From Escherichia coli (lineage in GTDB: Bacteria; Pseudomonadota; Gammaproteobacteria; Enterobacterales; Enterobacteriaceae), in NCBI RefSeq assembly GCF_030013595.1, contig NZ_CP122768.1: DNA of 64,000 nt; one strand, given 5' to 3'. The notes beneath the pieces are model-generated. The model ran no database searches and was not told the origin of the DNA. It saw only the letters and a program-made list of their open reading frames with translations. The first letter of the stretch is position 1. Every line of letters begins with the position of its first letter. The position numbers and the translations under genes are program-made. Below, piece by piece: positions 11,830-59,739 of the stretch.

Positions 11830-14391
11830 TTACACCAGACTCTTCAAGCGATAAATCCACTCCAGCGCCTGACGCGGAGTCAGTGAATCCGGGTCGAGAT
11901 TTTCCAGTGCTTCGACCGCAGGCGAAGTTTCTTCTGGCACTGACAGCAAAGACATTTGCGTACCATCCACTTGCGTAGCGGCGGCGTTCGGCGAAATGCT
12001 TTCCAGCTCACGCAGTTTTTGCCGTGCGCGCTTAATAACCTCTTTTGGCACGCCGGCCAGAGCTGCAACCGCCAGGCCGTAGCTTTTGCTCGCTGCGCCA
12101 TCCTGCACGCTGTGCATAAAGGCAATGGTGTCGCCGTGCTCCAGTGCATCGAGATGCACGTTGGCGACGCCTTCCATTTTCTCCGGTAACTGGGTCAGCT
12201 CGAAATAGTGGGTAGCAAACAACGTCAACGCTTTAATCTTATTCGCCAGATTTTCCGCGCACGCCCACGCCAGCGACAGACCATCGTAAGTGGACGTTCC
12301 ACGCCCAATCTCATCCATCAGCACCAGACTGTACTCGGTGGCGTTATGTAAAATATTGGCGGTTTCGGTCATTTCCACCATAAAGGTTGAACGCCCGGAT
12401 GCCAGATCATCCGCTGCCCCTACGCGGGTAAAGATGCGATCGATAGGTCCAATCTTGACTTTTTGTGCCGGTACATAGCTGCCGATGTAGGCCATCAGCG
12501 CAATCAGTGCGGTCTGGCGCATATAGGTACTTTTACCGCCCATATTCGGACCGGTAATGATCAACATGCGACGCTGCGGCGACAGGTTCAGCGGGTTGGC
12601 GATAAACGGCTCATTCAGCACCTGTTCAACCACCGGATGGCGGCCTTCGGTGATGCGAATACCCGGTTTATCAATAAAGGTCGGGCAGGTGTAGTTCAGC
12701 GTATAGGCCCGTTCCGCCAGGTTCACCAGCACGTCGAGTTCCGCCAGCGCGCTCGCGCTCTGTTGCAACGCTTCCAGATGCGGCAACAGCAGGTCGAACA
12801 ACTCTTCATAAAGCTGTTTTTCCAGTGCCAGTGCTTTGCCTTTTGAAGTGAGAACTTTGTCTTCGTACTCTTTTAGCTCTGGAATAATGTAGCGCTCGGC
12901 GTTTTTCAGCGTCTGGCGACGCATGTAATTGATGGGTGCCAGATGGCTTTGTCCACGGCTGATCTGAATGTAATAACCATGAACCGCGTTAAAGCCGACT
13001 TTCAGGGTGTCCAGGCCAGTACGTTCACGCTCGCGGACTTCCAGACGCTCCAGATAATCGGTCGCGCCGTCAGCCAGCGCGCGCCACTCATCCAGCTCTT
13101 CGTTATAGCCCGATGCGATAACACCACCGTCGCGTACCAGCACTGGCGGTGTGTCGATGATTGCCCGCTCCAGCAGATCGCGCAGCTCGGCAAACTCGCC
13201 CATTTTTTCACGTAGCGCCTGTACCGGAGCGCTATCGACATTTTCTAACTGCGCACGCAGCTCCGGCAGTTGCTGGAAAGCGTGACGCATACGGGCCAGA
13301 TCGCGTGGGCGAGCAGTTCGTAAAGCCAGACGCGCCAGAATACGTTCCAGGTCGCCGACCTGACGCAGCACCGGCTGTAGCTCGGCGGTGAAATCCTGCA
13401 ATGCGCCAATAGTTTGCTGGCGCTCAAGCAACACGCGGGTATCGCGCACTGGCATATGCAGCCAGCGTTTCAGCATACGACTACCCATCGGCGTTACAGT
13501 GCAGTCGAGCACTGAAGCCAGCGTGTTTTCCGCACCGCCCGCCAGGTTCTGGGTAATTTCCAGGTTACGACGCGTCGCGGCATCCATAATGATGCTGTCC
13601 TGCTCACGTTCCATAGTGATAGAACGAATATGCGGCAGAGTCGTACGTTGGGTATCTTTCGCATACTGCAACAGACAACCGGCAGCACAAAGTCCGCGCG
13701 GCGCGTTCTCGACGCCAAAACCGACCAGATCGCGGGTGCCAAATTGCAGATTCAACTGCTGGCGCGCGGTGTCGATTTCAAACTCCCACAGCGGACGACG
13801 GCGCAGACCGCGACGACCTTCAATCAGCGACATCTCAGCAAAATCTTCTGCATATAGCAGTTCCGCCGGATTAGTGCGTTGCAGTTCTGCCGCCATCGTT
13901 TCCCGGTCAGCCGGTTCGCTCAGGCGAAAACGACCGGAACTGATATCCAGCGTCGCGTAGCCGAAACCTTTACTGTCCTGCCAGATAGCCGCCAGCAGAT
14001 TGTCCTGGCGCTCTTGTAACAGGGCTTCATCGCTGATGGTGCCTGGCGTAACGATACGCACAACTTTGCGCTCAACCGGACCTTTGCTGGTCGCCGGATC
14101 GCCAATTTGTTCGCAGATGGCAACGGACTCTCCCTGATTCACCAGTTTGGCGAGATAGTTTTCCACCGCATGGTAGGGGATCCCCGCCATCGGGATCGGC
14201 TCTCCCGCTGAAGCACCGCGTTTGGTCAGTGAAATATCCAGCAGCTGCGAGGCGCGTTTCGCGTCGTCATAAAACAGTTCGTAAAAGTCACCCATCCGAT
14301 AGAACAGCAGGATCTCGGGATGCTGGGCTTTCAGCTTGAGATACTGCTGCATCATTGGCGTATGGGCATCAAAATTTTCTATTGCACTCAT
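11830..14391 (-). CDS. mutS: DNA mismatch repair protein MutS
   Basis: 853-aa [43 protein letters not shown]... with Walker [10 protein letters not shown]. Confidence 0.97.
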
Positions 14392-30336: not shown

Positions 30337-30648
30337 ATGCACATCATTTCTAAAGCGCCATTTGAAGAGTGTGCGCGCAAATATCCTAACGACGCTCTGG
30401 CTCTACACTCATTGTATCGGGTTATTAAGGAAACGGATTTTTCTACACCAGAAGAAATGCGAACGGCGTTTCCCAACCTCGACAATTTTAGATATCGCAA
30501 CAAATGGTACGTTCTGGATGTCGGCGGGAACAATCTTAGGGTTATTGCCTACATAAACTTTGTTAATAAGCGGTTCTTTGTGAAGCACATAACGAATCAC
30601 GCAGAGTATGACAAACTGACACGTTACTACAGAGAGAACAAAGAATGA
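30337..30648 (+). CDS. HigB-family type II toxin (RelE/ParE-fold mRNA interferase), 103 aa
   Basis: MHIISKAPFEECARKYP...FPNLDNFRYRNKWYVLDVGGNNLRVIAYI... resembles HigB/YgjN-type toxins; toxin gene precedes the antitoxin with a 4-bp ATGA overlap. Confidence 0.8.
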   Translation: MHIISKAPFEECARKYPNDALALHSLYRVIKETDFSTPEEMRTAFPNLDNFRYRNKWYVLDVGGNNLRVIAYINFVNKRFFVKHITNHAEYDKLTRYYRENKE

Positions 30649-31064
30649 CTGCTAATGCTGCACGCGCTGTTAAAGCAACAAGAGAACTGGTCAATGCAGT
30701 CCCCTTTCTGGGAGGTAGTGACTCAGAAGATGATTATCGTGAAGCACTGGAACTGGTCGAATATTTGATTGAAGAAGATGACACCAATCCACTTATCGAC
30801 TTTCTGGCGAGCCGCATTGCAGAGTATGAAAGCAACAACGAAAAGTTTGCAGAGTTCGACAAAGCCGTTGCTGCAATGCCGGTTGGCGTGGCGTTACTTC
30901 GTACGCTGATTGATCAACATAATCTGACCTACGCGGATTTGAAGAACGAAATCGGCTCTAAATCCCTGGTCAGTCAGATTTTGTCTGGGCAACGATCCCT
31001 GACGATATCCCACATTAAGGCACTTTCAGCCCGATTTGGTGTTAAGCCGGAATGGTTTCTTTGA
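30645..31064 (+). CDS. HigA-family antitoxin (XRE-type HTH at the C-terminus), 139 aa
   Basis: ...GSKSLVSQILSGQRSLTISHIKALSARFGV... HTH segment; translationally coupled to the upstream toxin. Confidence 0.8.
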   Translation: MTANAARAVKATRELVNAVPFLGGSDSEDDYREALELVEYLIEEDDTNPLIDFLASRIAEYESNNEKFAEFDKAVAAMPVGVALLRTLIDQHNLTYADLKNEIGSKSLVSQILSGQRSLTISHIKALSARFGVKPEWFL

Positions 31065-36131: not shown

Positions 36132-38372
36132 ATGGCAAAAAACACATCTTGCGGTGTCCAACTGCGTATTCGTGGCAAAGTGCAGGGCGTCGGTTTTCGT
36201 CCGTTTGTCTGGCAGCTGGCACAGCAATTAAATCTTCACGGCGATGTCTGTAATGACGGCGATGGAGTGGAAGTCCGGCTGCTGGAAGACCCGGAAACGT
36301 TTCTTGTGCAGTTGCATCAGCACTGCCCGCCGCTGGCGCGTATTGATAGCGTCGAGCGTGAGCCGTTTATCTGGTCACAACTGCCCACCGAGTTCACTAT
36401 CCGTCAGAGCACAGGCGGAGTCATGAATACGCAAATTGTTCCCGATGCCGCGACTTGTCCTGCCTGTCTTGCTGAAATGAATACCCCGGGCGAGCGGCGT
36501 TATCGTTATCCGTTTATCAACTGTACCCACTGCGGCCCACGTTTCACCATTATTCGCGCCATGCCTTACGACCGCCCGTTTACCGTGATGGCGGCGTTTC
36601 CGCTGTGTTCGGCCTGTGACAAAGAATATCGCGACCCGCTCGATCGTCGCTTCCACGCCCAGCCGGTGGCCTGCCCGGAGTGTGGCCCCCATCTTGAATG
36701 GGTAAGTCATGGTGAACATGCAGAACAAGAGGCGGCATTACAGGCAGCTATCGCACAGTTAAAAATGGGCAACATTGTCGCCATCAAAGGGATTGGCGGA
36801 TTTCATCTCGCCTGCGATGCGCGTAACAGTAACGCGGTGGCGACACTTCGGGCGCGCAAACATCGCCCGGCGAAACCGCTGGCGGTCATGTTGCCAACGG
36901 CAGAAGGTTTACCAGACGCTGCGCGCCAGTTGCTCACCACACCCGCCGCGCCGATTGTGCTGGTGGATAAAAAAAACGTTCCTGAGCTTTGTGATGATAT
37001 CGCCCCTGGCCTTAATGAAGTCGGGGTGATGTTGCCTGCGAACCCGCTCCAGCATTTGCTGTTACAGGAACTGCAATGCCCGCTGGTGATGACCTCCGGC
37101 AACCTGAGCGGTAAACCACCGGCTATCAGCAACGAACAGGCGCTGGCGGATTTGCAGGGCATTGCCGACGGATTCTTGATACATAACCGCGACATCGTGC
37201 AGCGGATGGATGATTCGGTGGTGCGCGAAAGCGGCGAAATGCTGCGCCGTTCGCGGGGGTATGTGCCGGATGCGCTGGCTTTGCCTCCGGGCTTTAAAAA
37301 TGTTCCGCCTGTGCTGTGTCTCGGCGCGGATCTGAAAAATACCTTCTGCCTGGTGCGCGGTGAACAAGCGGTGTTGAGTCAGCATCTGGGCGATTTAAGT
37401 GACGATGGCATCCAGATGCAGTGGCGCGAAGCGTTACGCCTGATGCAAAACATCTACGATTTTACCCCGCAATACGTTGTGCATGACGCGCATCCGGGCT
37501 ATGTCTCCAGCCAGTGGGCGCGCGAAATGAATCTGCCGACGCAAACGGTGCTGCATCATCATGCTCATGCGGCGGCGTGTCTGGCAGAACATCACTGGCC
37601 ACTGGATGGCGGTGATGTCATTGCGTTGACGCTCGACGGTATCGGTATGGGGGAGAACGGCGCTTTGTGGGGCGGCGAATGCCTGCGGGTGAACTATCGC
37701 GAATGTGAGCACCTGGGCGGCTTGCCTGCGGTGGCGCTTCCGGGGGGCGATTTGGCTGCAAAGCAGCCGTGGCGTAACCTGCTGGCGCAGTGCCTGCGCT
37801 TTGTGCCGGAGTGGCAGAATTACCCTGAAACGACAAGTGTGCAACAGCAAAACTGGAGCGTGCTGGCGCGGGCCATTGAGCGTGGAATTAACGCGCCGCT
37901 GGCGTCATCGTGTGGGCGTTTGTTCGATGCTGTGGCGGCGGCACTGGGCTGTGCGCCAGCCACGTTAAGTTATGAAGGTGAAGCGGCTTGTGCTCTGGAG
38001 GCGCTCGCAGCCTCATGCGACGGAGTGACGCATCCGGTGACGATGCCGCTGGTGGACAATCAACTGGATCTCGCCACTTTCTGGCAGCAGTGGCTGAACT
38101 GGCAGGCACCGGTTAATCAACGCGCGTGGGCGTTTCATGATGCGCTGGCGCAGGGTTTTGCCGCGTTGATGCGTGAGCAGGCCACGATGCGCGGTATCAC
38201 TACGCTGGTATTTAGCGGTGGGGTTATTCATAACCGATTGCTGCGTACACGCCTGGCGCATTATCTCGCTGATTTCACATTGCTATTTCCACAGAGTTTA
38301 CCGGCGGGTGATGGCGGCTTGTCTCTGGGGCAGGGGGTTATTGCTGCGGCGCGCATCCTGCATGCTGCATAG
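36132..38372 (+). CDS. hypF: [NiFe]-hydrogenase maturation carbamoyltransferase HypF
   Basis: Starts [30 protein letters not shown] (acylphosphatase domain), then two CxxC Zn-finger pairs, YrdC-like and Kae1-like domains; the track start at 36060 is a GTG over-extension. Confidence 0.94.
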
Positions 38373-41083: not shown

Positions 41084-41137
41084 TTTTTTATCTGATTGTT
41101 TTTACTCTATAAATAAAATTATGCTCATTAATGAATA

Positions 41138-41193
41138 GTCAAAATGACTATCAATAAAATGGTCGATATGACAATATCTATAGTCAAATTGAC
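41138..41193. promoter_or_regulatory. Three NorR enhancer sites (GT-N7-AC): gtcaaaatgac 41138-41148, gtcgatatgac 41162-41172, gtcaaattgac 41183-41193
   Basis: Three evenly spaced GT-N7-AC inverted repeats in the norR-norV intergenic region. Confidence 0.7.
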
Positions 41194-41205
41194 AGTGAGG
41201 CAAAG

Positions 41206-42720
41206 ATGAGTTTTTCCGTTGATGTGCTGGCGAATATCGCCATCGAATTGCAGCGTGGGATTGGTCATCAGGATCGTTTTCAGCGCCTGATCACCACGCT
41301 GCGTCAGGTGCTGGAGTGCGATGCGTCTGCGTTGCTACGCTACGACTCGCGGCAGTTTATTCCGCTTGCCATCGACGGGCTGGCAAAGGATGTACTCGGT
41401 AGACGCTTTGCGCTGGAAGGGCATCCACGGCTGGAAGCGATTGCCCGCGCCGGGGACGTGGTGCGCTTTCCCGCAGACAGCGAATTGCCCGATCCCTATG
41501 ACGGTTTGATTCCCGGGCAGGAGAGTCTGAAGGTTCACGCCTGCGTTGGTCTGCCATTGTTTGCCGGGCAAAACCTGATCGGCGCATTGACGCTCGACGG
41601 GATGCAACCCGATCAGTTCGATGTTTTCAGCGACGAAGAGTTACGCCTGATTGCCGCGCTGGCGGCGGGAGCGTTAAGCAATGCGTTGCTGATTGAGCAA
41701 CTGGAAAGCCAGAATATGCTGCCGGGCGATGCCGCGCCGTTTGAAGCGGTGAAACAGACGCAGATGATTGGCTTGTCGCCAGGCATGACGCAATTGAAAA
41801 AAGAGATTGAGATTGTGGCGGCGTCCGATCTCAACGTCCTGATCAGCGGTGAGACGGGAACCGGTAAGGAGCTGGTGGCGAAAGCGATTCATGAAGCCTC
41901 GCCACGGGCGGTGAATCCGCTGGTCTATCTCAACTGTGCCGCACTGCCGGAAAGTGTGGCGGAAAGTGAACTGTTCGGGCATGTGAAAGGGGCGTTTACT
42001 GGCGCTATCAGTAACCGCAGCGGGAAGTTTGAAATGGCGGATAACGGCACACTGTTTCTCGATGAGATCGGCGAGTTGTCGTTGGCATTGCAGGCCAAGT
42101 TGCTGCGAGTGTTGCAGTATGGCGATATTCAGCGTGTTGGCGATGACCGCAGTTTGCGGGTCGATGTGCGCGTGCTGGCGGCGACTAACCGTGACTTACG
42201 GGAAGAGGTACTGGCAGGGCGATTTCGCGCCGATTTGTTTCATCGCCTGAGCGTGTTTCCACTTTCAGTGCCGCCGCTGCGTGAGCGGGGCGATGATGTC
42301 ATTCTGCTGGCGGGGTATTTCTGCGAGCAGTGTCGTTTGCGGCTGGGGCTCTCCCGCGTGGTATTAAGTGCCGGAGCGCGAAATTTACTGCAACACTACA
42401 GTTTTCCGGGAAACGTGCGCGAACTGGAACATGCTATTCATCGGGCGGTAGTACTGTCGAGAGCCACCCGCAGCGGCGATGAAGTGATTCTTGAGGCGCA
42501 ACATTTTGCTTTTCCTGAGGTGACGTTGCCGCCGCCAGAAGCAGCGGCGGTGCCCGTTGTTAAGCAAAATCTGCGTGAAGCGACAGAAGCGTTCCAGCGT
42601 GAAACCATTCGCCAGGCACTGGCACAAAATCATCACAACTGGGCTGCCTGCGCGCGAATGCTGGAAACTGACGTCGCCAACCTGCATCGGCTGGCGAAAC
42701 GTCTGGGATTGAAGGATTAA
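41206..42720 (+). CDS. norR: Nitric-oxide-responsive sigma-54 activator NorR (GAF + AAA+ + HTH)
   Basis: 504-aa [21 protein letters not shown]... with GETGTGKE Walker A and GAFTGA motif. Confidence 0.95.
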
Positions 42721-43682
42721 ATAATCCCGGCCTGATAGAAATCCTGCAGGTTAATTGCGCCGGTGAGTTTGCCGTTTTCATCCACTACCGGTGCGGCGGT
42801 GATTTTGCGTTTCATCAGGATTTCTTTGGCGTCGATGGCACGGCTTTGCGATTGCAACGTAGTGCCGCCGACAGTCATCGCTTCATTGACTGGCGTGGTG
42901 AGTGCGCCGCCGCCAACCAGCCAGCGACGTAAATCGCCGTCGGTAAAGACGCCTTGTACCTGTTGTTGAGCGTCACATACCGCCACCAGCCCCAGACCAG
43001 TGCGGCTAAGTTCCAGCATCGCGTCCATCACGCTGGCGGTTAACGCCACCTGCGGGATGGCATCGTCACGACGCATAAGATGATGCACTTTGTTCAGCAA
43101 GCGAGCGCCCAGCGCACCGGCTGGATGTGAACGGGCAAAATCTTCTTCATTAAAACCGCGCGCCTGCATGACTGCCATCGCCAGCGCGTCGCCCATCATC
43201 AGGGTATTTACAGTGCTGGAAGTCGGCGCAAGGTGCATCGGGCAGGCTTCGCGTTCCACGGAGATATCCAGCACCGCTTTCGCCGCCAGGCCCAGCGGTG
43301 ACGTCGGTTTGCCGGTCATCGCCAGCAGCGCGATAGATTTGTCTTCCAGACGTGGAATAATCAGATCCAGTTCCTTCGCGCCACCGGAGTAAGAGATAAA
43401 CAGCATCACATCGCGGCTTTCGATCATCCCCAGGTCGCCGTGCAATGCCTCTGCCGGATGGACAAAAAAGGCAGGAGTGCCGGTGCTGGCAAGCGTTGCG
43501 GCGATTTTCTTACCAATGTGGCCCGATTTGCCAATTCCCGAAACCACCACTTTGCCTTCGCAGTGCAGGATGATATTGGCGGCGCGAACAAAATCATCGC
43601 CCAGACGTTCCGGTAAACGGCTTGCTTCCTGTAACTCCAGCATTAACGTCTGACGTCCCGCGTTCAGTAGTGCTTCACTCAT
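42717..43682 (-). CDS. gutQ: D-arabinose 5-phosphate isomerase GutQ (SIS + tandem CBS)
   Basis: 321-aa [26 protein letters not shown]... Confidence 0.93.
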
Positions 43683-44448
43683 TGCTCTCTCCGGTTATGA
43701 TCACATCGATCCCTTTCTTTTCCAGCGCCTGACGAAACGCCGGATCGATACCTGCGTCGGTAATTAGCTTATCGACGCTTTCAAGACTGCAAACTACGTT
43801 GGGGCTTTTACGGCCAAACTTTGATGAGTCCGCCATCAAAATCACTTCGCGCGCGGCATTGCACATTGCCTTACTGACGGTATAAACCTCGTTGAACGTG
43901 GTTACGCCCGCATTGAGATCGATGCCGTCGGTGCCCATAAACAATTTATCGAAGGTGAAATGCTCGAAGGCATTCTCTGCCAGTTGCCCGTGAAATGAGG
44001 CCGATTTTTTACGAAATGTTCCGCCTGGCATCAGGATAGTTTGTTCGTTATCCAGTTCGGATAGCGCATTGACGATATGCAGACTGTTGGTCATCACTGT
44101 GATGTTATTAAAGCGCGAGAGCAGGGGAACCATCTGCAAAACGGTACTGCCAGCATCAAGAATGATCGAATCGCCATCATGGATAAAACTAACGGCAGCT
44201 TCTGCAATCAGCTCTTTCTTGTGGGTGTTGATGAGTGTTTTATGATCGATAGGCGGATCGGATTCCTCTTTATTCAACACCACTCCGCCATAAGTACGAA
44301 TGACGGTTCCGGCATGTTCCAGAATGACCAGATCTTTGCGAATGGTTGTGCCTGTGGTGTCAAAGTATTGCGCCAATTCTTCAACCGAGCATTTACCCTG
44401 CTTTTGCAGATACTCCAGAATGGCGGCCTGACGCTGACGAGGTTTCAT
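43675..44448 (-). CDS. srlR: DeoR-family glucitol operon repressor
   Basis: 257-aa [32 protein letters not shown]... Confidence 0.93.
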
Positions 44449-44514
44449 GGGCGTGATTACCTGATTTAGGTTTCAAAATGATAACTTCGCAAGCAAGTAA
44501 CATTCACAACGAAA

Positions 44515-44874
44515 TTATCCACGTTTCAGTTTAAGCGCCAATGATAGAGCATTCTGTGATAGTGGATCATGGGGAAAGATCACATCGGGCTGTAAATCAC
44601 CCGCATACATACCGGTAATTGCGGGAATTTTTTGTGGTCGGGCGAAGACGGTCAGTCCTTTCATAAACAAGGTGTCGACGATGCGTTGCTGATCGTCCAG
44701 GGCGATGGCGACCACGACCCGCGGTTTAAAGCGCCCGCTGGAACGGCCCACGCCAACCCGCCCTTGCTGGCATAGTGTGTCGAAGGCACGGTTAAAACGA
44801 GAAATTTGCCAACCGCCTAAGGCCAGTTGCGCACACCAGGCGATAACGGCGACGGTGATGAGTGCGGATACCAT
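44515..44874 (-). CDS. gutM: Glucitol operon activator GutM
   Basis: 119-aa ORF MVSALITVAVIAWCAQLALGGWQISRF... Confidence 0.9.
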   Translation of the reverse strand: MVSALITVAVIAWCAQLALGGWQISRFNRAFDTLCQQGRVGVGRSSGRFKPRVVVAIALDDQQRIVDTLFMKGLTVFARPQKIPAITGMYAGDLQPDVIFPHDPLSQNALSLALKLKRG

Positions 44875-44909
44875 AACTTTTCCTTAATGTAGTGGCGGAA
44901 GTCCTGTAT

Positions 44910-44934
44910 GCCTGATGAGCGTAGCGCATCAGGC
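44910..44934. repeat. REP-like palindromic element in the srlD-gutM intergenic region
   Basis: gcctgatg...catcaggc palindrome resembling the REP consensus; a second hairpin gcggagatcc/ggatctccgc lies at 44950-44974. Confidence 0.4.
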
Positions 44935-44979
44935 ATTTTATTAGTCTCGCGGAGATCCTTAACGGATCTCCGCTGTTAA

Positions 44980-46134
<1,155 letters not shown>

Positions 46135-46144
46135 GTTTCAGCCT

Positions 46145-47682
<1,538 letters not shown>

Positions 47683-47919
47683 TTATTGTTTTATTACCAA
47701 ACGGCAACCTAATCTAATCAGATTGAAAGATTTAAAAGTGTTATTTTGATCGCAAAATGAAAGATAAATATTTTAATTTGAAAGTTTGAATAAAAGGATT
47801 GCGAGGAGAATGAGTTGAGTTATGTAAAGTCCGTATCGGGCAGTGACTACCGCTTCCTTGTGCGGGGCGTGATGCTTTACCATACTTGCCCCTGGTTGAA
47901 TCTGTTAAATGGACCCCTC

Positions 47920-49005
47920 ATGTTCAAGCGTCGTTATGTAACATTGCTTCCCCTTTTTGTGTTGCTTGCCGCCTGTAGCAGCAAGCCAAAACCTACTGAG
48001 ACTGAAACGACCACCGGAACGCCGTCTGGCGGCTTCCTGCTTGAGCCGCAGCACAATGTGATGCAGATGGGCGGTGACTTCGCCAATAACCCGAATGCCC
48101 AGCAGTTCATCGACAAAATGGTGAACAAACACGGTTTCGATCGTCAGCAGTTGCAGGAAATTCTCTCTCAGGCGAAACGTCTGGATTCGGTACTGCGGCT
48201 GATGGATAACCAGGCACCAACCACATCGGTGAAACCGCCATCAGGTCCGAACGGCGCATGGCTGCGTTATCGCAAAAAATTTATTACGCCGGACAACGTG
48301 CAGAATGGTGTGGTTTTCTGGAATCAGTATGAAGATGCGTTGAATCGCGCGTGGCAGGTGTATGGCGTACCGCCGGAAATTATCGTCGGGATTATCGGCG
48401 TTGAAACCCGCTGGGGGCGCGTGATGGGGAAAAACCGTATCCTCGATGCGCTGGCAACGCTGTCATTTAACTACCCACGCCGCGCGGAGTATTTCTCTGG
48501 CGAGCTGGAAACTTTCCTGCTGATGGCGCGCGATGAGCAGGACGATCCGCTCAATCTGAAAGGTTCCTTTGCCGGGGCGATGGGCTACGGACAGTTTATG
48601 CCGTCGTCTTACAAACAATATGCGGTAGATTTCAGCGGCGACGGGCATATCAACCTGTGGGATCCGGTTGATGCGATCGGTAGTGTGGCGAACTATTTCA
48701 AAGCGCACGGCTGGGTGAAAGGTGATCAGGTTGCGGTGATGGCAAACGGTCAGGCTCTAGGCTTGCCAAATGGCTTCAAAACCAAGTACAGCATTTCGCA
48801 GCTTGCCGCGGCAGGTTTAACGCCACAGCAGCCGCTGGGCAACCATCAACAAGCCAGCCTGCTGCGTCTGGATGTCGGTACCGGTTACCAGTACTGGTAC
48901 GGTCTGCCGAACTTCTACACCATCACCCGTTACAACCACAGTACCCATTACGCAATGGCGGTCTGGCAGTTAGGACAAGCCGTGGCGCTGGCGCGCGTGC
49001 AGTAA
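47920..49005 (+). CDS. mltB: Membrane-bound lytic murein transglycosylase B (lipoprotein)
   Basis: Starts MFKRRYVTLLPLFVLLAACSS (lipobox LAAC); the track ORF from 47815 is a 5' over-extension. Confidence 0.93.
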   Translation: MFKRRYVTLLPLFVLLAACSSKPKPTETETTTGTPSGGFLLEPQHNVMQMGGDFANNPNAQQFIDKMVNKHGFDRQQLQEILSQAKRLDSVLRLMDNQAPTTSVKPPSGPNGAWLRYRKKFITPDNVQNGVVFWNQYEDALNRAWQVYGVPPEIIVGIIGVETRWGRVMGKNRILDALATLSFNYPRRAEYFSGELETFLLMARDEQDDPLNLKGSFAGAMGYGQFMPSSYKQYAVDFSGDGHINLWDPVDAIGSVANYFKAHGWVKGDQVAVMANGQALGLPNGFKTKYSISQLAAAGLTPQQPLGNHQQASLLRLDVGTGYQYWYGLPNFYTITRYNHSTHYAMAVWQLGQAVALARVQ

Positions 49006-49149
49006 CTATTTGCAAGAGGGGAGCGTGAGCTTCCCTCTGGCTAATCAGCTTTTTTCTGAATCCTCCTCGTAAAATTGCAACGCCAACACCATCTTCCTGA
49101 CGAAAGTGCTATCTTGTCCGGCATAAATTTTTGACTGACAGAGGTTGTG

Positions 49150-49643
49150 ATGACTGACAGTGAACTGATGCAGTTAAGCGAACAGGTTGGGCAGGCGCTG
49201 AAAGCCCGTGGCGCAACCGTAACAACTGCTGAGTCTTGTACCGGTGGTTGGGTAGCGAAAGTGATTACCGATATTGCCGGCAGTTCCGCCTGGTTTGAAC
49301 GCGGATTTGTCACCTACAGTAACGAAGCGAAAGCGCAAATGATCGGTGTACGCGAAGAGACGCTGGCGCAGCATGGCGCGGTGAGCGAACCTGTCGTGGT
49401 GGAAATGGCGATAGGCGCACTGAAAGCGGCTCGTGCTGATTATGCCGTGTCTATTAGTGGTATCGCCGGGCCGGATGGCGGCAGTGAAGAGAAGCCTGTC
49501 GGCACCGTCTGGTTTGCTTTTGCCACTGCCCGTGGTGAAGGCATTACCCGGCGGGAATGCTTCAGCGGTGACCGTGATGCGGTGCGTCGTCAGGCTACTG
49601 CGTATGCATTGCAGACCTTGTGGCAACAATTTCTACAAAACAC

Positions 49644-49647
<4 letters not shown>
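49150..49647 (+). CDS. pncC: NMN amidohydrolase PncC (CinA C-terminal-domain family)
   Basis: MTDSELMQLSEQVGQALKARGATVTTAESCTGGW...; ATG 49150 preferred over the in-frame GTG at 49147. Confidence 0.9.
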
Positions 49648-50788
<1,141 letters not shown>

Positions 50789-50808
50789 TCGTCTTGTTTG
50801 ATACACAA

Positions 50809-50836
50809 GGGTCGCATCTGCGGCCCTTTTGCTTTT
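50809..50836 (+). terminator. Intrinsic terminator downstream of recA
   Basis: Stem gggtcgc/gcggccc with 4-nt loop followed by ttttgctttttt. Confidence 0.65.
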
Positions 50837-50856
50837 TTAAGTTGTAAGGATATGCC

Positions 50857-51357
50857 ATGACAGAATCAACGTCCCGTCGCCCGGCATATGCTCGCCTGTT
50901 GGATCGTGCGGTACGCATTCTGGCGGTGCGCGATCACAGTGAGCAAGAACTGCGACGTAAACTCGCGGCACCGATTATGGGCAAAAATGGCCCGGAAGAG
51001 ATTGATGCCACGGCAGAAGATTACGAGCGCGTTATTGCCTGGTGCCATGAACATGGCTATCTCGATGACAGCCGATTTGTGGCGCGCTTTATCGCCAGCC
51101 GTAGCCGCAAAGGTTATGGACCTGCGCGTATTCGTCAGGAACTGAATCAGAAAGGTATTTCCCGCGAAGCGACAGAAAAAGCGATGCGTGAATGTGACAT
51201 CGACTGGTGCGCACTGGCGCGCGATCAGGCGACGCGAAAATATGGCGAACCTTTGCCAACTGTCTTTTCAGAAAAAGTTAAGATCCAGCGTTTTCTGCTC
51301 TATCGTGGCTATCTGATGGAAGATATCCAGGATATTTGGCGAAATTTTGCCGACTGA
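50857..51357 (+). CDS. recX: RecA regulator RecX
   Basis: 166-aa [39 protein letters not shown]... Confidence 0.93.
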
Positions 51358-51485
51358 ACGCATACGGGATTTTACTTCCCAGTCAAGAAAACTTATCTTA
51401 TTCCCACTTTTCAGTTACCAGCCGGGCGGTTAACAACACGCAACGGCTGGTAGCGATATTTCGTTAGCTTGATTTCAGGATAATT

Positions 51486-54116
51486 ATGAGCAAGAGCACC
51501 GCTGAGATCCGTCAGGCGTTTCTCGACTTTTTCCATAGTAAGGGACATCAGGTAGTTGCCAGCAGCTCCCTGGTACCCCATAACGACCCAACTTTGTTGT
51601 TTACCAACGCCGGGATGAACCAGTTCAAGGATGTGTTCCTTGGGCTCGACAAGCGTAATTATTCCCGCGCTACCACTTCCCAACGCTGCGTGCGTGCGGG
51701 TGGTAAACACAACGACCTGGAAAACGTTGGTTACACCGCGCGTCATCATACCTTCTTCGAAATGCTGGGCAACTTCAGCTTCGGCGACTATTTCAAACAC
51801 GATGCCATTCAGTTTGCATGGGAACTGCTGACCAGCGAAAAATGGTTTGCCCTGCCGAAAGAGCGTCTGTGGGTTACCGTCTATGAAAGCGACGACGAAG
51901 CCTACGAAATCTGGGAAAAAGAAGTAGGGATCCCGCGCGAACGTATTATTCGCATCGGCGATAACAAAGGTGCGCCATACGCATCTGACAACTTCTGGCA
52001 GATGGGTGACACTGGTCCGTGCGGCCCGTGCACCGAAATCTTCTACGATCACGGCGACCACATTTGGGGTGGCCCTCCGGGAAGTCCGGAAGAAGACGGC
52101 GACCGCTACATTGAGATCTGGAACATCGTCTTCATGCAGTTCAACCGCCAGGCAGATGGCACGATGGAACCGCTGCCGAAGCCGTCTGTAGATACCGGTA
52201 TGGGTCTGGAGCGTATTGCTGCGGTGCTGCAACACGTTAACTCTAACTATGACATCGACCTGTTCCGTACGCTGATCCAGGCGGTAGCGAAAGTCACTGG
52301 CGCGACCGATTTGAGCAACAAATCGCTGCGCGTAATCGCTGACCACATTCGTTCTTGTGCGTTCCTGATCGCGGATGGCGTAATGCCGTCCAATGAAAAC
52401 CGTGGTTATGTACTGCGTCGTATCATTCGTCGCGCAGTGCGTCACGGTAATATGCTCGGCGCGAAAGAAACCTTCTTCTACAAACTGGTTGGTCCGCTGA
52501 TCGACGTTATGGGCTCTGCGGGTGAAGACCTGAAACGCCAGCAGGCGCAGGTTGAGCAGGTGCTGAAGACTGAAGAAGAGCAGTTTGCCCGTACTCTGGA
52601 GCGCGGTCTGGCGCTGCTGGATGAAGAGCTGGCAAAACTTTCTGGTGATACGCTGGATGGTGAAACGGCTTTCCGTCTGTACGACACCTATGGCTTCCCG
52701 GTTGACCTGACGGCTGATGTTTGTCGTGAGCGCAACATCAAAGTTGACGAAGCTGGATTTGAAGCAGCAATGGAAGAGCAGCGTCGTCGTGCGCGCGAAG
52801 CCAGCGGCTTTGGTGCCGATTACAACGCAATGATCCGTGTTGACAGTGCATCTGAATTTAAAGGCTATGACCATCTGGAACTAAACGGCAAAGTGACCGC
52901 GCTGTTTGTTGATGGTAAATCGGTTGATGTCATCAATGCAGGCCAGGAAGCTGTGGTCGTGCTGGATCAAACGCCATTCTATGCGGAATCCGGCGGTCAG
53001 GTTGGTGATAAAGGCGAACTGAAAGGCGCTAACTTCTCCTTTGCGGTGGAAGATACGCAGAAATACGGCCAGGCGATTGGTCACATCGGTAAACTTGCTG
53101 CGGGTTCTCTGAAAGTGGGCGACGCGGTGCAGGCTGATGTTGATGAAGCTCGTCGCGCCCGTATTCGTCTGAATCACTCCGCAACGCACCTGATGCACGC
53201 GGCGCTGCGCCAGGCTCTGGGTACTCATGTATCGCAGAAAGGTTCACTGGTTAACGACAAAGTGCTGCGCTTCGACTTCTCACACAACGAAGCGATGAAG
53301 CCAGAAGAGATTCGTGCGGTCGAAGACCTGGTGAACGCACAGATTCGCCGTAACTTGCCGATTGAAACCAACATCATGGATCTCGAAGCGGCGAAAGCGA
53401 AAGGTGCGATGGCACTGTTCGGCGAGAAGTATGATGAGCGCGTACGCGTGCTGAGCATGGGCGATTTCTCCACCGAGCTGTGTGGCGGTACTCACGCCAG
53501 TCGCACCGGTGATATTGGTCTGTTCCGCATCATCTCTGAATCGGGTACTGCTGCAGGCGTTCGTCGTATCGAAGCGGTAACCGGAGAAGGCGCTATCGCC
53601 ACCGTTCATGCAGACAGCGATCGCTTAAACGAAGTCGCGCATCTGCTGAAAGGCGATAGCAATAATCTGGCTGATAAAGTGCGCTCAGTACTGGAACGTA
53701 CGCGTCAGCTGGAAAAAGAGTTACAACAGCTTAAAGAACAAGCTGCCGCACAGGAGAGCGCAAATCTTTCCAGTAAGGCAATTGATGTTAATGGTGTTAA
53801 GCTGTTGGTTAGCGAGCTTAGCGGTGTTGAGCCGAAAATGTTGCGTACCATGGTTGACGATTTAAAAAATCAGCTGGGGTCGACAATTATCGTGCTGGCA
53901 ACGGTAGTCGAAGGTAAGGTTTCTCTGATTGCAGGCGTATCTAAGGACGTCACAGATCGTGTGAAAGCAGGGGAACTGATTGGTATGGTCGCTCAGCAGG
54001 TGGGCGGCAAGGGTGGTGGACGTCCTGACATGGCGCAAGCCGGTGGTACGGATGCTGCGGCCTTACCTGCAGCGTTAGCCAGTGTGAAAGGCTGGGTCAG
54101 CGCGAAATTGCAATAA
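51486..54116 (+). CDS. alaS: Alanine--tRNA ligase
   Basis: 876-aa [34 protein letters not shown]... with class II aaRS motifs. Confidence 0.97.
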
Positions 54117-54350
54117 TATAAGCGTCAGGCAATGCCGTGGACTCGCTTCACGGCATTCGCATTAACGCTATCGACAACGATAAAGTCAGGTTGAAGTTGT
54201 GTATATCGGCTAAACTTAGGTTTAACAGAATGTAATGCCATGACTGCTTACATGTAATGTGTTTGTCATTGCTTACTTTTTGGCGTTATATGATGGATAA
54301 TGCCGGGATACAGAGAGACCCGACTCTTTTAATCTTTCAAGGAGCAAAGA

Positions 54351-54536
54351 ATGCTGATTCTGACTCGTCGAGTTGGTGAGACTCTCATGATTGGGGATGA
54401 GGTCACCGTGACAGTTTTAGGGGTAAAGGGCAACCAGGTACGTATTGGCGTAAATGCCCCGAAGGAAGTTTCTGTTCACCGTGAAGAGATCTACCAGCGT
54501 ATCCAGGCTGAAAAATCCCAGCAGTCCAGTTACTAA
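54351..54536 (+). CDS. csrA: Carbon storage regulator CsrA
   Basis: 61-aa [51 protein letters not shown]. Confidence 0.97.
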
Positions 54537-54761
54537 TCTTTCCGCGTCTCATCTTTATCGGTGAGACGCACCCTCAAAATTTCTTCTTCACTCCATTGTC
54601 TTTTCGCTTTACTCCCGTTCATTCAACTTAAGTTTCCATTTTTTTGCATTACTGCTATCTGACAGACCTCCGTTTTTTTGTTGATAAAACACTCTTTTTG
54701 ACGTTTTTACAGACTAATTGAGCGTGAAGTGTGCAAACGATAAAAGTGTGGGAAAAATTGT

Positions 54762-54789
54762 TTGACTTATAAGTCTCAGAAAGTAATAT
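54762..54789 (+). promoter_or_regulatory. Candidate promoter of the tRNA-Ser/tRNA-Arg cluster (-35 ttgact, 16-bp spacer, -10 taatat, GC-rich discriminator)
   Basis: Hexamers followed by gtgcgcc, typical of stringently controlled stable-RNA promoters. Confidence 0.45.
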
Positions 54790-54851
54790 GTGCGCCACGC
54801 AGCGACGATGAGCGATAAACAAGTTCTTCGAAGCACTCGTAAGAGGCGTGT

Positions 54852-54944
54852 GGTGAGGTGGCCGAGAGGCTGAAGGCGCTCCCCTGCTAAGGGAGTATGC
54901 GGTCAAAAGCTGCATCCGGGGTTCGAATCCCCGCCTCACCGCCA
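54852..54944 (+). tRNA. serV: tRNA-Ser (anticodon GCU), 93 nt including CCA
   Basis: Cloverleaf with long variable arm; anticodon loop cuGCUaa; ends ...ccgcctcaccgcca. Confidence 0.93.
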
Positions 54945-54947
54945 TTT

Positions 54948-55024
54948 GCATCCGTAGCTCAGCTGGATAGAGTACTCGGCTACGAACCGAGCGGTCGGAG
55001 GTTCGAATCCTCCCGGATGCACCA
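54948..55024 (+). tRNA. tRNA-Arg (anticodon ACG), 77 nt, copy 1
   Basis: gcatccgtagctcagctggatagagtactcggctACGaaccgagcggtcggaggttcgaatcctcccggatgcacca; 3 nt after tRNA-Ser. Confidence 0.93.
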
Positions 55025-55139
55025 TATTCTACGTACTTTCAGCGATGAAGGTATAGAAGAGGTGGCGGTAATAACCGCAGGCACCAGGGAGGATAACGTT
55101 GCTTTAGCAACGGCCCGAAGGGCGAGCCGCAAGGCGAGT

Positions 55140-55158
55140 AATCCTCCCGGATGCACCA
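55140..55158 (+). other. 19-nt 3'-terminal fragment of tRNA-Arg (aatcctcccggatgcacca) in the long spacer
   Basis: Exact match to the last 19 nt of the intact copies; upstream sequence diverges. Confidence 0.7.
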
Positions 55159-55222
55159 TCTCTTACTTGATACGGCTTTAGTAGCGGTATCAAAAAATCT
55201 GCAGTAAAGTAAGTTTCCCGAT

Positions 55223-55299
55223 GCATCCGTAGCTCAGCTGGATAGAGTACTCGGCTACGAACCGAGCGGTCGGAGGTTCGAATCCTCCCGGATGCACCA
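55223..55299 (+). tRNA. tRNA-Arg (anticodon ACG), 77 nt, copy 2
   Basis: Identical to copy 1. Confidence 0.93.
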
Positions 55300-55401
55300 T
55301 ATTCTCCGTAATCATCAGTGATGATGGTTAAGATGGATTTTCTTATTTGATATGGCTTTAGTAGCGGTATCAATATCAGCAGTAAAATAAGTTTTCCCGA
55401 T

Positions 55402-55478
55402 GCATCCGTAGCTCAGCTGGATAGAGTACTCGGCTACGAACCGAGCGGTCGGAGGTTCGAATCCTCCCGGATGCACCA
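55402..55478 (+). tRNA. tRNA-Arg (anticodon ACG), 77 nt, copy 3
   Basis: Identical to copy 1. Confidence 0.93.
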
Positions 55479-55688: not shown

Positions 55689-56255
55689 ATGTACGAGCGT
55701 TATGCAGGTTTAATTTTTGATATGGATGGCACAATCCTGGATACGGAGCCTACGCACCGTAAAGCGTGGCGCGAAGTATTAGGGCACTACGGTCTTCAGT
55801 ACGATGTTCAGGCAATGATTGCGCTTAATGGCTCGCCCACCTGGCGTATTGCTCAGGCGATTATTGAGCTGAATCAGGCCGATCTCGACCCGCATGCGTT
55901 AGCGCGTGAAAAAACAGAAGCAGTAAGAAGTATGCTGCTGGATAGTGTCGAGCCGCTTCCTCTTGTTGAAGTGGTGAAAAGCTGGCATGGTCGTCGCCCA
56001 ATGGCTGTAGGAACGGGGAGTGAAAGCGCCATCGCTGAGGCATTGCTGGCGCACCTGGGATTACGCCGTTATTTTGACGCCGTCGTCGCTGCTGATCACG
56101 TCAAACACCATAAACCCGCGCCAGACACATTTTTGTTGTGCGCGCAGCGTATGGGCGTGCAACCGACACAGTGTGTGGTCTTTGAAGATGCCGATTTCGG
56201 TATTCAGGCGGCCCGTGCAGCAGGCATGGACGCTGTGGATGTTCGCTTGCTGTGA
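55689..56255 (+). CDS. yqaB: HAD-superfamily sugar phosphatase YqaB
   Basis: 188-aa ORF with DMDGT HAD motif I (…LIFDMDGTILDTEP…). Confidence 0.92.
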   Translation: MYERYAGLIFDMDGTILDTEPTHRKAWREVLGHYGLQYDVQAMIALNGSPTWRIAQAIIELNQADLDPHALAREKTEAVRSMLLDSVEPLPLVEVVKSWHGRRPMAVGTGSESAIAEALLAHLGLRRYFDAVVAADHVKHHKPAPDTFLLCAQRMGVQPTQCVVFEDADFGIQAARAAGMDAVDVRLL

Positions 56256-56665
56256 GTGAAGCGTTATCGCTTTTCTCGTTGTTTGCCAGTAGTTTTCTCA
56301 GCGCTACACTATTACCCGGCAACTCCGAAGTCGTGCTGGTGGCAATGTTGCTTTCCGGGATCAGTCATCCCTGGGTTTTAGTTTTAACAGCAACAATGGG
56401 TAATAGCCTTGGAGGGTTAACTAACGTTATCCTTGGGCGTTTCTTTCCATTGCGTAAAACATCGCGCTGGCAAGAGAAAGCTACCGGCTGGCTGAAACGC
56501 TATGGTGCAGTCACGCTATTATTAAGCTGGATGCCCGTGGTTGGCGATTTACTGTGTCTGTTAGCGGGATGGATGCGCATCTCCTGGGGGCCGGTAATCT
56601 TTTTTTGTGCCTTGGTAAAGCGTTACGCTATGTTGCAGTTGCAGCAGCGACCGTTCAGGGCATGA
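56252..56665 (+). CDS. yqaA: Small DedA/YqaA-family inner membrane protein; C-terminus altered by an apparent -1 frameshift in a T7 tract
   Basis: GTG start overlapping the yqaB stop; after ...WGPVIFF the frame ends CALVKRYAMLQLQQRPFRA*; one extra T in the run at 56600-56606 would give a hydrophobic LCLGKALRYVAVAAATVQGMMWWH* tail and a 142-aa product. Confidence 0.8.
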   Translation: MSEALSLFSLFASSFLSATLLPGNSEVVLVAMLLSGISHPWVLVLTATMGNSLGGLTNVILGRFFPLRKTSRWQEKATGWLKRYGAVTLLLSWMPVVGDLLCLLAGWMRISWGPVIFFCALVKRYAMLQLQQRPFRA

Positions 56666-56724
56666 TGTGGTGGCACTAATTGTAGGCCTGCACATATGGT
56701 CACCATTACAGTTATGCTAATTAA

Positions 56725-58308
<1,584 letters not shown>

Positions 58309-58316
58309 CAGAAAAG

Positions 58317-58389
58317 AAAAAGGCCACTCGTGAGTGGCCAAAATTTCATCTCTGAATTCAGGGATGATGATAACAAATGCGCGTCTTTC
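58317..58389 (-). ncRNA. micA: MicA (SraD) Hfq-dependent small RNA, ~73 nt
   Basis: Reverse strand reads GAAAGACGCGCATTTGTTATCATCATCCCTGAATTCAGAGATGAAATTTTGGCCACTCACGAGTGGCCTTTTT, ending in a terminator hairpin (58322-58339) plus U-run; sits between gshA and luxS. Confidence 0.9.
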
Positions 58390-58422: not shown

Positions 58423-58457
58423 AGAAAATTTTTAAAAAAATTACCGGAGGTGGCTAA

Positions 58458-58973: not shown

Positions 58974-59009
58974 TCAGTAAACTATCTTCACAATTAATTG
59001 AATAAATAT

Positions 59010-59033
59010 CCTCCGGCATAGCCGGAGGTTTTT
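59010..59033 (+). repeat. Subterminal hairpin at the tnpA-distal end of the IS200-like element (cctccggcatagccggagg + ttttt)
   Basis: 19-nt palindrome; 14/19 identity and same architecture as the hairpin at 59681-59699. Confidence 0.6.
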
Positions 59034-59109
59034 CAAATGCGCCTATAAGGCTCTCTTACCAGCCGCGCCCTAACAGGCGCACACGATCTGACATTTGCAT
59101 CCAACTTCG

Positions 59110-59568
59110 TTACTTACGGCCCGTAAACGGGCTGCCCGGATAGGGAATCGATAACTGATCTCCCATTTTATCCTCTTCAAGCTGGTGCTTTATGTAATCC
59201 TGTATCTTCGCCGTGTTCTTACCCACTGTATCGACGTAGTACCCTCTGCACCAGAACTCCCTGTTCCTGTATTTGAATTTCAAATCACCAAACTGCTCGT
59301 AAAGCATCAGACTGCTTTTCCCTTTCAGATATCCCATAAACCCGGATACGCTCATTTTGGGCGGGATCTCCACAAGCATATGGATATGATCTGCACAGCA
59401 TTCAGCTTCCAGAATCCGTACGCTTTTCCACTCACACAGCTTTCTCAAAATACTGCCTATTGCTCTACGCTTCTCTCTGTAGAACACCTGTCTTCGGTAT
59501 TTTGGCGCAAAAACTATGTGATATTTACAGTTCCATCGGGTGTGCGCTAAGCTCTTTTCGTTCCCCAT
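59110..59568 (-). CDS. tnpA: IS200-type transposase TnpA (HuH single-strand transposase), 152 aa
   Basis: MGNEKSLAHTRWNCKYHIVFAPKYRR...CCADHIHMLVEIPPK...YVDTVGKN (HuH and catalytic Tyr region); the track ORF is extended 17 codons. Confidence 0.92.
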   Translation of the reverse strand: MGNEKSLAHTRWNCKYHIVFAPKYRRQVFYREKRRAIGSILRKLCEWKSVRILEAECCADHIHMLVEIPPKMSVSGFMGYLKGKSSLMLYEQFGDLKFKYRNREFWCRGYYVDTVGKNTAKIQDYIKHQLEEDKMGDQLSIPYPGSPFTGRK

Positions 59569-59573
59569 TGGGA

Positions 59574-59643
59574 CCCCCTTTTGATTTCTTGTTTGACACT
59601 TGCAGTTGCCAGACCGCAAGGTGTTTTAACAAATCAAAAGGGG
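59574..59643 (-). promoter_or_regulatory. Long imperfect stem-loop in the tnpA leader that pairs with the Shine-Dalgarno sequence
   Basis: cccccttttgattt (59574-59587) pairs with aaatcaaaagggg (59631-59643); the tnpA Shine-Dalgarno lies in the 3' arm, as described for IS200. Confidence 0.6.
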
Positions 59644-59680
59644 TTTTAATAACTGGCTCAAAGCTGAAAGCTTTCCGGAA

Positions 59681-59704
59681 CCCCCAGCCTAGCTGGGGGT
59701 TTTC
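59681..59704 (+). repeat. Subterminal hairpin at the tnpA-proximal end of the IS200-like element (cccccagcctagctggggg + tttt)
   Basis: 19-nt palindrome matching the other end hairpin in architecture. Confidence 0.6.
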
Positions 59705-59711
59705 TGTGCAC

Positions 59712-59739
59712 AAAAAAGCCAGTTCAAATGAACTGGCTT
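59712..59739 (-). terminator. Intrinsic terminator of emrB
   Basis: Reverse strand: stem aagccagttc/gaactggctt followed by a U-run, 8 nt after the emrB stop. Confidence 0.7.

Follow-up and report, generated by a model that had tools for sequence, protein, structure and literature searches.

A one-base shortfall in the poly-T tract of Escherichia coli yqaA: a sequencing under-call or a recent inactivating deletion

The yqaA locus and its product

The DNA analyzed here is a 64-kb stretch of E. coli sequence (the window), in which yqaA lies in the gene order yqaB-yqaA-gshA, the orthologous position of E. coli yqaA (Table 1). The open reading frame list gives yqaA a 137-residue product, with a GTG start overlapping the yqaB stop and a C-terminus that reads ...WGPVIFFCALVKRYAMLQLQQRPFRA. 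Within the gene, the thymine run bounded by C56599 and G56607 comprises seven bases (T7). A second frame remains open to a TAA codon at 56677–56679 and reads ...LCLGKALRYVAVAAATVQGMMWWH up to it. Ten 7-mer homopolymers and one 8-mer occur in the window, and a T7 run as such is not unusual. Restored to eight thymines (T8), the yqaA tract would be the joint-longest run in 64 kb, tied with an A8 at 36969. Further downstream, the MicA sRNA is encoded on the minus strand between gshA and luxS (58318–58389; Rfam RF00078, 83.9 bits).

Table 1. Features of the yqaA locus in window coordinates
Feature	Position	Strand	Description	Basis
yqaB (HAD phosphatase)	55689..56255	+	Intact; upstream, 4-base overlap onto yqaA	
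yqaA	56252..56665	+	Codons 1–118 normal, 119–137 out of frame	ORF list, Pfam
T7 homopolymer	56600..56606	+	Spans codons F117 and F118 and the first base of codon 119	
Out-of-frame tail CALVKRYAMLQLQQRPFRA and TGA stop	56606..56665	+	Replaces the conserved C-terminal helix	Translation
Ancestral-frame remainder of yqaA	56607..56679	+	Last two bases of L119 and all of CLGKALRYVAVAAATVQGMMWWH with its stop	
gshA (glutamate-cysteine ligase)	56752..58308	+	Intact; 87 bases downstream of the frameshifted yqaA stop	

Rebuilding the tract in silico as T8 gives a 142-residue protein, for which an exact protein look-up returned the name YQAA_ECOLI, and residues 1–118 of the window product are identical to those of the 142-residue YqaA. 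The original prediction had placed a one-T shortfall at this run in a gene it took to be yqaA, and had stated that one extra T restores a 142-residue YqaA with a hydrophobic tail in place of a hydrophilic one. The shortfall was correct in every detail, the rebuilt protein matches YQAA_ECOLI exactly, and the identity of the gene is confirmed by a Pfam VTT/DedA domain, the synteny and the identical N-terminal 118 residues. The contrast between the tails also holds (mean Kyte–Doolittle hydropathy of −0.14 for the shifted tail and +0.82 for the T8 tail). The remainder of the ancestral frame is still intact, is identical to that of a close relative (contig L024, below) and encodes a tail conserved across genera; it would be translated following a −1 slip on the T run.

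The window product matches PF09335 (VTT_dom) with 38.2 bits, compared with 40.7 bits for the T8 form (cut-off 33.9), and its match covers profile positions 5–109 of 123, whereas that of the T8 form reaches 119. In the normal tail (residues 119–142, net charge +2) a 19-residue hydropathy window peaks at 1.87. The new tail has a net charge of +4, and its 19-residue window falls short of the transmembrane range on the Kyte–Doolittle scale. By Pfam match, conservation and hydropathy, the window product does not contain a complete VTT domain with the conserved C-terminal helix (FFLCLGKALRY...QG..WW). If the sequence is taken at face value, the conserved final transmembrane helix would be missing from the T7 product, as would the end of the VTT domain, because the hydrophobic residues 119–142 are replaced by 19 residues of lower hydropathy and higher charge.

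YqaA belongs to the COG1238 subfamily of DedA proteins, whose function is unknown and for which a role in lipid transport has been proposed (PMC10127716); a homolog affects indium resistance in Rhodanobacter (PMC8679861). Elsewhere in the gene, codons 45–59 (56384–56428), which encode the LTATMGNSLGGLTNV re-entrant-loop motif, show nine of 12 scored degenerate codons invariant across 58 Enterobacteriaceae species while neighboring codons vary freely, a constraint at the nucleotide level.

Tract length in relatives and public genomes

The closest complete RefSeq E. coli genome is 98.7% identical over 96% of a 20-kb query. Drafts of the same lineage were found by exact-protein look-ups (AlaS, MutS, AscF, SrlE and GshA). 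Two contigs of one draft (L024 and L030, both GCA_018041865.1) together cover 22576–64000 (41.5 kb) with four SNPs and one gap, the yqaA T. L024, aligned to 41486–64000, accounts for three of these SNPs and the single gap, and has T8; L030 aligns to 22576–44033 without gaps. A third contig (L028) differs from 1830–24391 by six SNPs and no gap. A 13.9-kb contig (L039) from a fragmented draft, GCA_008326365.1, matches 41109–55005 at 100% identity, carrying the private SNPs of the window, and ends at 55005, before yqaA. When approximately 62 kb of the window is set against three drafts of short-read type, the yqaA T is the only indel; the A8 in hypF (36969–36976), all ten 7-mers and all 37 6-mers agree, and no further homopolymer-type error was found across this length. 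Among the near relatives compared, T7 is private to the window sequence.

One relative of the same lineage with long contigs (L031, GCA_030347985.1; aligned to 22576–44035) shows A8→A7 and G6→G5 losses in hypF, which is not called there, and four T/C differences, all in GACGTC-like contexts and absent from the window. These differences form the error signature of long reads, perhaps tied to a methylation motif.

Several other features lie in the window. An insertion of approximately 700 bp between luxS and emrB (59006–59712) contains a 152-residue Y1 transposase gene (IS200/IS605-type, PF01797); it is common to L024 and a further contig (L014), is absent from most E. coli, and explains the uncovered part of the 20-kb search. 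In this lineage a HigB-toxin/HTH_3 antitoxin pair (30337–31064, mapped from the gene calls of L030 and a further contig, L029) adjoins ascB. One tRNA-Ser followed by three tRNA-Arg copies occupies 54852–55475, where other E. coli loci have two to four Arg copies; this array breaks short-read drafts, and L039 ends there. At 46410 a G→A change converts the Dcm site CCTGG to CCTAG and gives SrlE P232L. Within the lineage it is shared by L039 only, yet 24 collection blocks of unrelated lineages contain the identical SrlE protein; the change looks recurrent, as expected from deamination of 5-methylcytosine. The modest best match and the naming of the 137-residue protein from S. flexneri raised the suspicion of a Shigella origin with a fixed pseudogene. 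This was rejected, given that the uncovered stretch is the IS200-type insertion shared with same-lineage E. coli drafts at 99.98% identity, and that 23 of 24 contigs in an S. flexneri lineage have T8.

Full-length yqaA (431 nt) was matched in 5,424 of 5,426 complete RefSeq E. coli genomes. Nine of these are 100% identical to the window over the 431 nt, and PGAP annotates the gene in them as a "YqaA family protein, frameshifted" pseudogene; in the other complete genomes listed, yqaA is one base longer and encodes the intact WP_001287454. Tract length was counted in complete RefSeq E. coli with exact 70–73-nt contexts of two common haplotypes. T8 was present in 3,792 genomes (2,998 + 794) and T7 in 56 (44 + 12, the 12 being in the context of the window itself), at the same rate of about 1.5% on both haplotypes (44/3,042 and 12/806). 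T6 and T9, looked for in the commoner haplotype context, occurred in no complete E. coli genome. Comparison with other E. coli, proposed beforehand as a check, thus identifies T8 as the normal state.

A survey of one representative genome per species recovered 75 Enterobacteriaceae loci. The tract reads TTT TTT TTR (T8) in 58 and is in frame with an interrupted or shifted run in 16; in 15 species a TTC codon breaks up the run, to no effect. The sole T7 frameshift is that of Phytobacter massiliensis JC163 (L059, NZ_HE578946.1), a GTDB species-representative record in which the tract reads GTG TTT TTT TGT GCC.... The C-terminal tail of YqaA is strongly conserved across genera in these 58 species. 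T8 (TTT TTT TTG, encoding F F L) is the ancestral and consensus tract.

Reference proteins ending in the same CALVKRY...FRA tail had been named in advance as an observation that would speak against a frameshift. Such proteins do exist, under the names "DedA family protein" and "inner membrane protein YqaA", but they are not the normal allele: the records represent the same T7 state and are flagged as a "frameshifted" pseudogene by PGAP in RefSeq. Dozens of public genomes already carry this annotation of what is an ordinary one-base homopolymer shortfall.

Origin of the one-base shortfall

Two mundane explanations remain, an under-called T8 or a trivial, recent inactivating mutation, and these are exactly the inactivating allele and the homopolymer sequencing error that the original prediction had offered; a genetic switch is not supported.

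The organism most likely carries T8, and the deposited sequence probably under-calls the run by one T. The true run would then be C-TTTTTTTT-G, covering codons 117–119 of yqaA at one of the two longest homopolymers in the window. Long-read or flow-based consensus would be expected to fail first at such runs, even in otherwise clean assemblies, and yqaA would be intact in the organism, encoding a 142-residue COG1238-type DedA inner-membrane protein.

Technical batches predominate among the public T7 records. Of the 56 complete genomes with T7, no fewer than 33 belong to seven groups, each from a single project, that span unrelated lineages and both yqaA haplotypes (16 Belgian pig "ETEC####", 7 "UID...", UCPROB-001/002, CRE287/CRE389, GN06489/GN06758, A1.S1.18/126 and 439/463). 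The Belgian genomes vary widely in size and include both haplotypes. Strain names, host and country alone connect them with a report on 94 isolates, in which nanopore R9.4.1 reads were assembled and polished with medaka only (PMC10151945). T7 reaches at least 17% in a nanopore-only batch, whereas genuine T7 is put at roughly 0.1–0.5% of complete genomes. Because technical T7 outnumbers plausible real T7 in complete genomes, even a small chance that the window was assembled without short-read polishing dominates. The one-sided length spectrum and the equal rate on both haplotypes are what a chemistry-dependent under-call predicts, and do not fit lineage-dependent biology. In the window, the longest local homopolymer is one base short; recurrence in unrelated genomes of the same batch is observed for public genomes in general. 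By analogy with these batches, we infer that the window assembly may have made the same mistake.

The clean surroundings of the tract were considered as proof of a real mutation, and this argument was rejected. In ETEC1749 and UID2404240036, taken as nanopore-only T7 genomes, no CDS other than yqaA is frameshifted within ±20 kb, and clean surroundings consequently cannot clear the window. L127, a T7 draft of S. flexneri, has no SNP relative to its 23 sister contigs, only the losses T8→T7 and A7→A6, and three of six T7 loci in which a neighboring spacer tract is normally A8 read A7 there. In the window, a spacer run is A7 (58434–58440); the spacer reads ATTTTT-A7 or AATTTT-A8 depending on the lineage, and is shortened in error-prone assemblies. 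Either alaS or emrB is split in T7 loci L006, L008, L010, L138 and L143; however, alaS is broken in the same way in L022, a T8 locus. In L006, L008, L010 and L022, which include NCTC records, the essential alaS is split alike into 234- and 660-residue pieces, and L008 and L010 are also without recA; the shared split may reflect laboratory strains or a common assembly error.

A genuine and very recent T8→T7 deletion by replication slippage, private to the strain or clone, is a possible but less probable explanation. YqaA would in this case exchange its last 24 residues for 19 unrelated basic and polar ones and probably be inactivated or destabilized, a loss that E. coli would tolerate, given the dispensability of yqaA and the presence of seven further DedA paralogs. 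The allele may also be slightly leaky: the exact wild-type protein would result if RNA polymerase inserted an extra U or if tRNA-Phe slipped by −1 on UUU UUU U. In E. coli, transcriptional insertions are found mainly in A/T runs and become more frequent as the run lengthens (PMC5574713). Points against an under-call come from the window itself, which is otherwise free of indels and motif-linked errors, shows no further sign of an error-prone assembly (including GACGTC substitutions and A8→A7 and G6→G5 losses of the kind found in L031), and matches a draft of the same clone. The identity with L039 suggests that short reads exist for this clone, and these were perhaps used for polishing.

The T7 state is also recorded outside complete genomes. 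The exact 137-residue protein occurs on at least 1,000 contigs and in 3,294 collection blocks, in more than 90% of which the longest carrying contig is below 200 kb, as is typical of short-read assemblies. T7 is found on at least six YqaA amino-acid backgrounds, each on tens to hundreds of contigs, and frameshifted variants carry names from S. flexneri, S. dysenteriae, S. sonnei, UMNK88 and IMT5155. O157:H7 strains ATCC 43889 and TT12A, which differ in norV status, have T7 in 40-kb regions without any other unexpected indel. In Salmonella Typhimurium U288 a yqaA frameshift ("ins") has been inherited by most of the clade, an example of a real yqaA indel (PMC8065163). In the same study, transposon insertions in yqaA had no effect on colonization of the pig colon (PMC8065163). 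The tail lost here forms part of the Pfam domain and has been conserved in 58 species. Against a genuine deletion, base rates imply that most T7 calls at this site in complete genomes are technical; real slippage should also yield insertions, and neither T9 nor T6 was seen in complete genomes in the context tested. The short-contig evidence may in part consist of read-level errors kept by automated assemblies; T5 was seen only in such contigs. T7 is absent from every inspected relative of the lineage of the window. The ratio of T7 to T8 collection blocks (3,294 to 83,759) was considered as an allele frequency and rejected, given that a block holds many T8 contigs but approximately one T7 contig.

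A broader form of this idea is that the T8 tract is a true hot spot of mutation, through which loss-of-function alleles persist at low frequency in Enterobacteriaceae, partly rescued by transcriptional or ribosomal −1 slippage and perhaps favored in some niches. Nineteen of the 56 T7 complete genomes are from pigs, and pig-adapted Salmonella U288 has an inherited yqaA frameshift; even so, we regard this as unlikely.

That the original prediction might have met a phase-variable allele was not borne out, and a contingency switch with the strain caught in its off state is very improbable. The tract is old and occurs widely, 58 of 75 species having T8; its first Phe codon is always TTT and its Leu codon always TTR, and length variants T5, T6, T7 and T9 are all present somewhere in public data. 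However, the tract appears no more conserved than the codon usage of the gene predicts: other yqaA Phe codons are equally biased to TTT (43/57, 45/58 and 53/58, or 75–91%) and TTA/TTG Leu codons are common, which together would explain it, and per-codon synonymous entropy across 58 species, used to test for selection on the tract, revealed no excess over the codon bias of the gene itself. The TTC interruptions noted above are likewise tolerated. A two-way polymorphism of tract length was not found among close relatives, with T8 in 3,792 genomes, T7 in 56 and T6/T9 in none in the context tested, and the T7 cases, about 1.5% of complete genomes, cluster by project, not by lineage or niche, and are mostly batch artefacts. 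In the S. flexneri lineage the exception to T8 among 24 contigs is an assembly of the error type. The window has an intact mutS (11830–14391), implying a mismatch-repair-proficient background. An 8-base run is short for a contingency locus given mismatch repair, and an inner-membrane DedA protein is not a usual target.

Equally hard to credit is programmed −1 ribosomal frameshifting or transcriptional slippage, under which the T7 allele would be functional through recoding, or two products would normally be made from T8 genes. The slippery sequence is present (ATC TTT TTT T, followed after a −1 shift by TTG TGC CTT GGT, encoding L C L G), U UUU UUU permits perfect re-pairing of tRNA-Phe with an exactly wild-type product, and a G-rich, Shine-Dalgarno-like GGGGG lies 11–15 bases upstream of the run; but the G run is simply that of conserved Trp-Gly codons, no frameshift is needed in 74 of 75 species, folding of the 84 downstream bases is no more stable than that of shuffled sequences (−29.0 vs. 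−26.9 ± 3.3 kcal/mol, z = −0.64), an Rfam search gave no match within yqaA, and the alternative-frame tails are not conserved (CALVKRYAML... in the window and CALERRYAMCWSRA in Phytobacter).

Significance and comparison with known systems

The missing T is more likely technical than biological, and in neither case a regulatory device. The T8 tract of yqaA is a site at which a base is recurrently dropped in otherwise excellent long-read E. coli assemblies, and could serve as a quick probe of homopolymer accuracy in assemblies of Enterobacteriaceae. Unless reads support it, a "frameshifted yqaA", the state of about 1.5% of complete genomes, is no sound basis for inferring gene decay, host adaptation or phase variation. 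A real deletion would mean that a dispensable membrane protein of the DedA family, with no known function, is lost from a single strain, and would carry little biological weight.

E. coli K-12 YqaA (UniProt P0ADR0, WP_001287454; COG1238, DedA/VTT PF09335) has the same yqaB-yqaA-gshA synteny as the window, and its DNA differs from that of the window by one T. The two proteins are identical through residue 118; the window reading frame departs at residue 119 and lacks the last helix and the end of the VTT domain. The yqaA genes annotated by PGAP as frameshifted (for example in ETEC1748, CRE389, ATCC 43889, TT12A, UMNK88 and APEC IMT5155) are in exactly the T7 state of the window, with no difference at the sequence level. 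Many of these genomes are traceable to error-prone batches.

Known under-calls of nanopore R9.4.1 and 454 sequencing likewise take the form of a one-base loss in the longest A/T run of a near-perfect assembly, with the same site hit in many unrelated genomes of the same projects. In contrast to the window, they often bring other 8-mer losses and substitutions at methylation motifs. The biological counterpart is the yqaA disruption of Salmonella U288 (PMC8065163). It is also an indel frameshift in the orthologous gene, clonally inherited without detectable colonization cost, and the Salmonella loci examined carry the same T8 tract in yqaA. However, the U288 change is recorded there as an insertion, fixed in a clade and given without its position within the gene, while that of the window is a deletion private to one sequence.
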